From an uncultured Gammaproteobacteria bacterium (GTDB lineage: Bacteria; Patescibacteriota; Patescibacteriia; Magasanikbacterales; UBA922), in NCBI GenBank assembly GCA_964519725.1, contig CAZFKS010000001.1, positions 49,406-113,405 on the forward strand: a stretch of DNA of 64,000 nucleotides, read 5' to 3'. This document shows positions 24,627 to 25,086 of the stretch, in pieces; position 1 is the stretch's first letter, and every line of letters starts with the position of its first letter. The notes under the pieces are model-generated. The model was not told where the DNA came from. It ran no database searches and saw nothing but the letters and a program-made list of their open reading frames with translations. The translations under genes and the position numbers were made by a program.

Positions 24627-24655
24627 TTGACACTGCCCATTTGCTTTGGTATACT
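24627..24655 (+). promoter_or_regulatory. consensus promoter TTGACA-17-TATACT for intron-containing tRNA-Asn
   Basis: read directly; -10 ends 23 nt before tRNA 5' end. Confidence 0.55.
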
Positions 24656-24678
24656 TTTCCCAGTTCATTTTAACTTAT

Positions 24679-25086
24679 TCGGGGGTAGCTCAGTGGTAGA
24701 GCAGTTGGCTGTTAGCTGAAATAGCAGCGCCGCGCAGGAATGCGGGGATGAAAACGGAGTGAATTGACAGGAAACCTCTCTGACTTAGTCAGGGTGGCAA
24801 TCTGCAGCCAAGCCTCAACCGACCCAGTTGTCTTAGATAATCGCACTGTTTGTCGCAAGATGAGCAAATTACGTATTTGGCACTGGCAAGGTAAGGAAGG
24901 TTCAGAGACTATCCCAATTATGGGAGTACTCTCACGCTTGCAAAAGTATGAGGGGAAGCGCTCCGCACCCAACCGTTTCTAGCAAGACTAGATTTGACGA
25001 GGGTGATGATATAGTCCACGCTTCGGTGAAAATCGAAGGAACGTGTAACCAATTGGTCAAGGGTTCGAATCCCTTCCCCCGAGCCA
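24679..25086 (+). tRNA. tRNA-Asn(GUU) interrupted by a group I intron (exon1 24679-24712, exon2 25046-25083 + encoded CCA)
   Basis: exons assemble into a canonical cloverleaf TCGGGGG.../...CCCCCGA, U1:A72, G73, anticodon loop CU-GUU-AA; E. coli tRNA-Asn also has U1 and G73. Confidence 0.7.
24713..25045 (+). ncRNA. group I intron (333 nt) in the anticodon loop between nt 35 and 36
   Basis: P7 5' strand GGTTCAGAGACTA (24899-24911) and P7 3' strand GATATAGTCC (25008-25017); P1 exon GCTGU pairs with IGS GCAGC giving U.G at the 5' splice site; intron ends in G; exon2 UA can form P10. Confidence 0.7.

Follow-up and report, generated by a model that had tools for sequence, protein, structure and literature searches.

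The 64,000-nucleotide stretch of contig CAZFKS010000001.1 (GenBank assembly GCA_964519725.1) analysed here, called the window below, carries at positions 24679-25086 of its forward strand a split gene for the asparagine transfer RNA (tRNA), tRNA-Asn(GUU), with a group I intron of 333 nucleotides (nt) lying between U35 and U36 of the anticodon. With a probability of roughly 93%, by our estimate, it is a functional tRNA-Asn(GUU) gene of the Patescibacteria, or candidate phyla radiation (CPR), interrupted by a self-splicing intron of the IA type. The two tRNA halves quoted in an earlier note, which had been made from the letters of the window, were found exactly, 333 nt apart, and their in-silico spliced product of 75 nt is read by ARAGORN as tRNA-Asn(gtt) with a regular cloverleaf. 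The split gene is missed in the genomic sequence by ARAGORN in its default mode and by the Rfam tRNA model.

The insert is recognised by the Rfam group I intron model (Intron_gpI, RF00028) over 24667-25038 (+) with 77.6 bits and an E-value of 5.6e-18, above the gathering score of 50 bits and across the full model (positions 1-253 of 253). P1 is a hairpin of GCUGUUA and UAGCAGC, in which the guide GCAGC (24724-24728) pairs with the exon sequence GCUGU (24708-24712), the sole wobble being U24712.G24724; a wobble of this kind at the 5' splice site is among the features by which group I introns are defined. The adjacent U24722-A24723 can pair either with 24713-24714, as a P1 extension of two base pairs (bp; UA/UA), or with U36-A37 of the 3' exon, as a minimal P10. 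The motifs GTTCAGAGACTA at 24900-24911 and GATATAGTCC at 25008-25017 each comprise one strand of P7 and its joining segment; P7 forms a pseudoknot with P3 and would, by homology, be part of the guanosine-binding helix.

Such introns at position 35/36 of tRNA-Asn(GUU) have been described in Patescibacteria by Nakagawa, Amikura, Omae and Suzuki (mSystems 2026, PMC13011429; preprint 10.1101/2025.07.03.662931). Their survey of 95 complete genomes of Patescibacteria yielded 22 tRNA genes that carry a group I intron, 15 of them tRNA-Asn(GUU) and three tRNA-Asp(GUC), all at 35/36, the Asn(GUU) 35/36 intron being thus the commonest tRNA intron of these bacteria (15/22; PMC13011429). According to PMC13011429, the site was first mapped by Williams in 2020 with tFind (bioRxiv 10.1101/2020.01.27.920355), no intron having been reported there earlier; it occurs also in Asp(GUC) and Tyr(GUA) tRNAs, the class counts 28 cases in complete genomes, and nine non-Patescibacteria 35/36 cases are on record from complete genomes (PMC13011429). 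The tRNA-Asn precursor of GCA_016700035.1 was shown to splice itself precisely at 35/36 in vitro in a GTP-dependent manner, the omega-G to C mutant, in which exon ligation was blocked, serving as the negative control (PMC13011429). The view of the earlier note that an Asn(GUU) host with a 35/36 insertion is unusual is therefore outdated, given these 15 of 22 Patescibacteria tRNA introns, the published in vitro splicing (PMC13011429), and at least 120 loci in the scan described below.

The window gene was aligned by MAFFT with the 11 complete published pre-tRNA-Asn sequences (Table S3, PMC13011429), and it aligns with them end to end over 476 columns. RNAalifold recovered the four tRNA arms together with P1, P2, P3, P4, P5, P6, P8 and P9, with compensatory changes in 51 of 68 pairs; after the P7 pseudoknot was added by hand, the structure counted 74 pairs, 95.8% paired, with compensatory changes in 51. 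When the 3' partners were slid by 1-3 columns as controls, only 31-44% were paired and 16-21 pairs covaried, and none of 500 shuffles matched the observed value on any measure. The anticodon stem covaries in all of its five pairs. P1 and P7 never vary, so that covariation is mute there and the support consists of conservation and position: the guide GCAGC is invariant, the P7 pairs are the same in 12 of 12 sequences, and P3, P4, J6/7-P7, J8/7-P7' and a P9 of 7 bp capped by a GAAA loop are conserved across the alignment. Of the seven unpaired window cells, four are due to MAFFT having moved the window row by one column at the bulged A of P4/P5, a region that is paired correctly in the Rfam alignment and in the single-sequence minimum free energy fold. 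Of the 73 columns that do not vary among the 11 published members, the window copy retains 71; the two exceptional columns are both sides of one P3 pair (A24758-U24962 for the published G-C) and form a compensatory pair. Such a pattern resembles that of a ribozyme under selection and argues against a decaying relic. Thus, what the earlier note had proposed for the insert, namely a 333-nt group I intron with both P7 motifs, a GCAGC guide at a U.G 5' splice site, a terminal G and an insertion at 35/36 of an Asn(GUU) tRNA, is borne out by the Rfam match, by the wobble at U24712.G24724 (12/12), by G25045 (G in 11 of the 12), by the RNAalifold structure with its hand-added P7, and by the ARAGORN call on the spliced 75-mer. 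The features are collected in Table 1.

Table 1. Features of the split tRNA-Asn(GUU) gene and its flanks (positions of the window)
Feature	Position	Strand	Remarks
Sigma-70-type promoter-like site	24627-24655	+	TTGACA-17-TATACT, TG before -10; 11/12 matches
5' exon	24679-24712	+	34 nt, tRNA-Asn positions 1-35
Acceptor stem, 5' strand	24679-24685	+	
D stem	24688-24691/24699-24702	+	
Anticodon stem, 5' strand	24704-24708	+	
C32 U33 G34 U35	24709-24712	+	
Group I intron	24713-25045	+	333 nt; RF00028, alignment with 11 published members
L1 loop	24715-24721	+	7 nt
Internal guide UAGCAGC	24722-24728	+	
P2 hairpin	24730-24747	+	CCGCGCA / UGCGGGG, GGAA loop, one G.G mismatch; 7/7 pairs with compensatory changes in the family
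P3, 5' strand	24755-24761	+	CGGAGUG
P4-P5 domain	24765-24806	+	P4 UG-a-CAGG / UCUGCA, bulged A; P5 and P5a hairpin
P6 with long extension	24807-24901	+	Extension of ~76 nt, 24816-24891
P7, 5' strand	24905-24911	+	GAGACUA, bulged A; 6 pairs with 25012-25017
P7.1 hairpin	24912-24925	+	UCCCA-AUUA-UGGGA
P7.2 hairpin	24929-24954	+	CUCUCA-c-GCUU GCAA AAGU-a-UGAGGG, 26 nt
P3, 3' strand	24959-24965	+	CGCUCCG
P8 hairpin	24966-25005	+	Compensatory changes in 3/4 consensus pairs
P7, 3' strand	25012-25017	+	UAGUCC; J8/7 (UGAUGAUA) directly before
P9 hairpin	25021-25038	+	CUUCGGU GAAA AUCGAAG; compensatory changes in 7/7 pairs, GAAA loop invariant
Terminal guanosine (omega G)	25045	+	G right before UAA in 11/12 aligned sequences
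3' exon	25046-25086	+	41 nt; begins U36 A37 A38
Anticodon stem, 3' strand	25049-25053	+	
T arm	25059-25075	+	
Acceptor stem, 3' strand	25076-25082	+	
Discriminator G	25083	+	
Encoded CCA	25084-25086	+	
Intrinsic-terminator-like hairpin	25086-25116	+	T-rich tail; 13 pairs, only 3 G-C

The hairpins P7.1 and P7.2 together are the hallmark of subgroup IA and are absent from IC3 introns, and with both of them predicted between P7 and P3' the architecture of the window intron is that of subgroup IA. P7.1 covaries among the relatives, its pair types being UCCC/GGGA, UCCU/AGGA, UCCA/UGGA and UCUC/GAGA, and the P7.2 position in five loci of the scan (L010, L020, L023, L028 and L064) is occupied by a hairpin of unrelated sequence, as checked by eye. 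Homologous tRNA-Asn 35/36 introns carry the label IA1 in entries of Table S5 of PMC13011429.

The promoter and terminator that the earlier note had placed on the two sides of the gene are both present as sequence elements. The promoter-like site is the best of five in the region (shuffles average 1.2 sites at 9/12 or better), and the 5' end of the tRNA lies 24 nt downstream of its -10 element, implying a short leader that would be cut off by RNase P. Transcription probably starts from this site and ends at the terminator-like hairpin.

A junction-pattern scan of species-representative genomes, in which J8/7-P7' was followed by a gap of the size of P9 and by G with the start of the Asn 3' exon (ATGAKATAGTCCAC-N20-26-GTGTAA), returned at least 120 loci, and all the 120 listed have a 3' exon of the tRNA-Asn type. 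Both halves could be rebuilt in 112 of these as split tRNA-Asn genes with introns of 185-723 nt, among which a length of 333 nt is unremarkable; the GTG end common to all 112 is imposed by the search pattern and is not evidence. RF00028 was passed at the site by 17 of 18 sampled loci. By record titles, about 86 of the 120 are CPR/Patescibacteria, 28 belong to other phyla, and 6 are unnamed. No close relative of the window intron is present among the 120 listed loci; the intron of L028 (Ca. Magasanikiibacteriota) has a P6 extension of similar size and of different sequence. A metagenome scan with the window-specific P1 20-mer CTGTTAGCTGAAATAGCAGC gave six matches, all of them by chance, in unrelated sequence with no tRNA context.

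The pattern together with an Rfam-positive intron was also observed under non-Patescibacteria titles (for example, L001, L012, L024, L007, L021, L050, L070 and L093), which include Cyanobacteria (Hormoscilla, Floridaenema, Phormidium), Acidobacteriota and Pyrinomonadaceae, Omnitrophota, Binatia, Heliobacteriaceae, and metagenome-assembled genomes (MAGs) labelled 'Gamma/delta-proteobacteria'. This spread is wider than the nine published complete-genome cases, and for some MAGs the label may not be reliable. One contig labelled Candidatus Woesearchaeota archaeon (L072, CAYTFL010000170.1, 1963 nt) contains a bacterial-type split tRNA-Asn, with 91.1 bits for RF00028 and an exon identity to the window of 87.5%, the joint highest among the loci listed; it is probably a mis-binned Patescibacteria contig. 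A match to the LOOT RNA (RF03000, 50.7 bits against a gathering score of 46.4) lies at 7814-7918 (-) of L010, a Saccharibacteria MAG.

In tblastn comparisons, nine window proteins match the L028 locus (43-71% identity) and seven of these lie in collinear order; the neighbours of the split tRNA-Asn of L028 include GreA and an FkbM methyltransferase. With 41-50% identity, the window GreA also has matches in loci of Falkowbacteria, Saccharibacteria and Uhrbacteria, where GreA likewise stands beside a split tRNA-Asn. Because of the nine protein matches, the seven collinear ones among them, and the GreA neighbourhood, the window is, to judge by its gene content, part of a Patescibacteria genome; since GreA adjoins the split tRNA-Asn in four relatives, vertical inheritance of the locus is suggested. 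In L028, L023, L010 and L064, the split tRNA-Asn has GreA within about 0.2-1.7 kb on its upstream side, on the same strand. The window GreA (23524-24045) is oppositely oriented (-), and a lipoprotein-like gene (24094-24585), for which an exact-sequence look-up gave no record, separates it from the tRNA. The other tRNA genes of the window, all on the forward strand, are Gly(CCC) at 17937-18008, Thr(CGU) at 18587-18660 and Gln(UUG) at 21318-21389; neither ARAGORN nor Rfam detected a second tRNA-Asn or a tRNA-Thr(UGU) within the 64 kb. About 20 nt after tRNA-Gln(UUG) starts a gene for a 188-aa protein (21412-21978, +) in which low-complexity sequence rich in R, G, K and D borders a zinc finger of the treble-clef type (PF23477, 57.7 bits).

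The two open reading frames (ORFs) inside the window intron (86 and 72 aa) gave no Pfam match, and the L1 loop is of 7 nt, in agreement with the opinion of the earlier note that these ORFs are not credible and that no homing endonuclease is encoded. Among the relatives, 33 of the 112 introns are of 437-723 nt, and most of these contain in the P1 loop an ORF of about 100-135 aa with CxxC..HH..CANCH motifs, scoring 19.9-24.9 bits for the Pfam HNH family PF01844 at a cut-off of 21.4; such loci include L028 (680-1341, -), L116, L007, L021 and L070. The conserved C-terminal TQLP codons (ACG CAG CTT CC) of these HNH ORFs are at the same time the guide GCAGC and the start of P2, that is, the ORF overlaps the ribozyme. 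In L025, L037, L105, L004, L075 and L083, the longest ORFs are shortened to 27-84 aa, and in L110 (384-789, +; intron of 336 nt) only a stretch translating to KRIYADRREELI, the N-terminal motif of the intact HNH proteins, is present; these seven loci look like a decay series of an HNH endonuclease gene. The window intron, with its short P1 loop, contains no remnant of an endonuclease.

Several observations weigh against a functional tRNA-Asn(GUU) gene at this locus. ARAGORN in its intron mode (-i) reads it as tRNA-Thr(tgt) i(33,333), 2 nt upstream; the tRNA-Asn signal in BLAST comes in part from the anticodon loop, as tRNA-Asn leaves the top of the list once the loop is altered; P10 has at most 2 bp and P2 holds a G.G mismatch; the P6 extension has no sequence match in the 112 relatives and might affect folding; and, with 64 kb of the genome in view, an intronless tRNA-Asn may exist elsewhere. 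The first two of these concern the splice register, as the junctions CU/GU/UAGC...ACG/UG/UAAC allow two excisions of 333 nt, each after a U and each ending in G, which would give either CU-GUU-AA (Asn, 35/36) or CU-UGU-AA (Thr, 33/34), and the second was absent from the earlier note. A gene for tRNA-Thr(UGU) with the intron at 24711-25043, the 5' exon running to U24710 and the terminal residue being G25043 would satisfy the ARAGORN call, and a Thr(UGU) gene must sit somewhere in the genome, the window having only tRNA-Thr(CGU). However, in P1 all 12 sequences pair U33 with A in Watson-Crick fashion, and the sole wobble is U35.G (alignment columns 34-83, 12 of 12). The Thr register would need its terminal G two positions upstream, where only 9 of the 12 sequences have one, two of the published homologues having A and a third C. 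In E. coli, the identity elements of tRNA-Asn are G73 and the anticodon, and the identity set of tRNA-Thr includes G1-C72 and C2-G71; the split tRNA carries U1-A72 and G73, in contrast to G1-C72, C2-G71 and U73 in the tRNA-Thr(CGU) of the window itself. All annotated BLAST matches listed for the Asn-register product were tRNA-Asn of E. coli and phage genomes; in the E. coli genomes the identity was 91.4% over 58 nt, to a plasmid-borne tRNA-Asn (plasmids of about 92-108 kb). The Thr-register product gave a mixed set of weaker matches (Ile, Val, Ala and Pro), and tRNA-Thr was absent from the matches listed. Since part of the Asn signal comes from the anticodon loop, the BLAST evidence for Asn identity is supportive, not decisive. 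The annotated tRNA references were those of the E. coli and phage collections and the window's own tRNA-Thr; over the 120 listed loci ARAGORN found six tRNAs only (Ala, Ser and Tyr), none of them Asn or Thr. The two-base shift itself is documented, since ARAGORN and tFind often name these genes Thr(UGU) 33/34, and the spliced homologue was sequenced as Asn (PMC13011429). The U35.G wobble, the terminal G, U1-A72 with G73 and the annotated BLAST neighbours thus favour the Asn register over Thr, and a tRNA-Thr(UGU) gene is very unlikely here.

The remaining objections concern the intron itself, which might be a decayed relic that no longer splices, in a tRNA pseudogene whose place is taken by an intronless tRNA-Asn elsewhere in the genome. 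The room left outside the window, the mismatch in P2 and the large P6 extension, unique in its sequence, would agree with such decay; nevertheless, the retained invariant columns with their compensatory P3 pair, the intact core helices, the strong promoter-like site and the preserved CCA end argue against it, and copies with and without an intron for the same anticodon are seldom found together in one genome (PMC13011429), which makes a relic hardly probable. The P6 extension corresponds to a 74-nt insertion relative to the Rfam model and is missing from the 11 published members, and one could imagine it to be a lineage-specific peripheral domain making splicing conditional on some factor or cellular state, a speculation to which we give a slim chance; if it were true and the gene were the only one for tRNA-Asn, the maturation of tRNA-Asn would become a control point in a regulator-poor genome. 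A mobile intron with a homing endonuclease was considered and rejected on account of the 7-nt L1 loop and the lack of any ORF with a family match. That the intron is mobile at present, having arrived recently through homing or horizontal transfer, would be in line with the HNH-type P1-loop ORFs of 33 of the 112 related introns, the syntenic relative L028 included, and with the occurrence of the class outside the Patescibacteria, but the window P1 loop is of 7 nt and the two internal ORFs have no family match, none of the collections searched yielded a near-identical copy, and the GreA neighbourhood shared by four relatives suggests vertical inheritance, so recent arrival is extremely improbable. 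A functional split tRNA-Asn(GUU) gene with a self-splicing intron is hence the reading preferred here.

Group I introns are excised by an established two-step scheme that depends on guanosine, and its application to the window gene would be as follows. A precursor of about 425-450 nt would be transcribed from the gene's own promoter-like site, and the exon bases G-C32-U33-G34-U35 would pair with the guide GCAGC to form P1, in which U35.G24724 marks the 5' splice site and by which U35 is presented to the catalytic core. A free guanosine bound at P7 (24905-24911 with 25012-25017) would then attack and cut after U35, G25045 would replace it at P7, and the 3'-OH of U35 would attack the 3' splice site, so that ligation of CUGU to UAA gives the loop CU-GUU-AA and restores the GUU anticodon. 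The exons are most likely aligned by the anticodon stem (24704-24708 with 25049-25053) and not by the 2-bp P10; in the Anabaena tRNA-Leu intron, exon alignment through the anticodon stem has reportedly been shown. The window copy would be expected to splice in the same manner as the homologue of GCA_016700035.1, for which precise 35/36 self-splicing has been demonstrated (PMC13011429). The guide pairs with CUGU, and therefore the same intron could recognise any tRNA with a GUN anticodon, which fits the published 35/36 site in Asp(GUC) and Tyr(GUA) tRNAs.

The main value of the locus is for annotation, as default tools miss the gene and the intron mode of ARAGORN gives the wrong amino acid. Because of the default ARAGORN and Rfam tRNA misses and the Thr call, an automated annotation would lack tRNA-Asn or gain a false tRNA-Thr(UGU), and tRNA-based estimates of genome completeness would suffer from a split tRNA-Asn that is missed or miscalled; this point has already been made in PMC13011429. 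With its at least 120 loci, about 28 non-Patescibacteria titles and HNH ORFs in about 30%, the junction-pattern scan indicates that the class is broader than the 28 complete-genome cases. It is a modest extension of the published class and bears on no open question.

The IC3 group I introns of bacterial tRNA genes include those of Azoarcus tRNA-Ile(CAU) and Agrobacterium tRNA-Arg(CCU), and the comparison set of the earlier note (Leu, fMet, Ile and Arg) was of IC3 introns, to which the window intron, of the IA type by its P7.1 and P7.2, does not correspond. The resemblance to the IC3 tRNA introns consists in a small, self-splicing intron inside the anticodon loop, having a U paired to G at the splice site, a terminal G and, as in most of them, no endonuclease gene; the subgroup, the insertion position and the host tRNA are different. 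Membership in IC3 was rejected, since the intron has both P7.1 and P7.2 and interrupts its tRNA at 35/36, not at 33/34, 34/35 or 36/37, the IC3 sites being 34/35 in cyanobacterial tRNA-Leu(UAA), 33/34 in tRNA-fMet and 36/37 in tRNA-Arg (PMC13011429). With the phage IA introns (td, nrdB and sunY of T4; those of Staphylococcus phage Twort), the window intron shares the presence of both P7.1 and P7.2 between P7 and P3'. Those introns are located in protein-coding genes and often have endonuclease ORFs, and BLAST of the window intron against 50,697 phage records gave no similarity, hence no sequence link to them.

With the Patescibacteria tRNA-Asn class of PMC13011429, the window gene has in common the host tRNA and its anticodon, the 35/36 site, the GCAGC guide with the U35.G wobble, the sequences of P3, P4, J6/7-P7 and J8/7-P7', the 7-bp P9 with GAAA, the Thr(UGU) 33/34 miscall, and the host phylum. 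The window intron is not among the 15 published Patescibacteria tRNA-Asn introns, and its length of 333 nt lies above the range of the 11 complete published members (205-312 nt, no endonuclease gene), the extra length being due to the 76-nt P6 extension and to the presence of both P7.1 and P7.2, the latter as in the Paceibacteria members. The long P6 extension and the 2-bp P1 extension (UA/UA) are individual to the window copy. The window locus is a further, previously unreported example of a published, experimentally validated and evidently abundant class.

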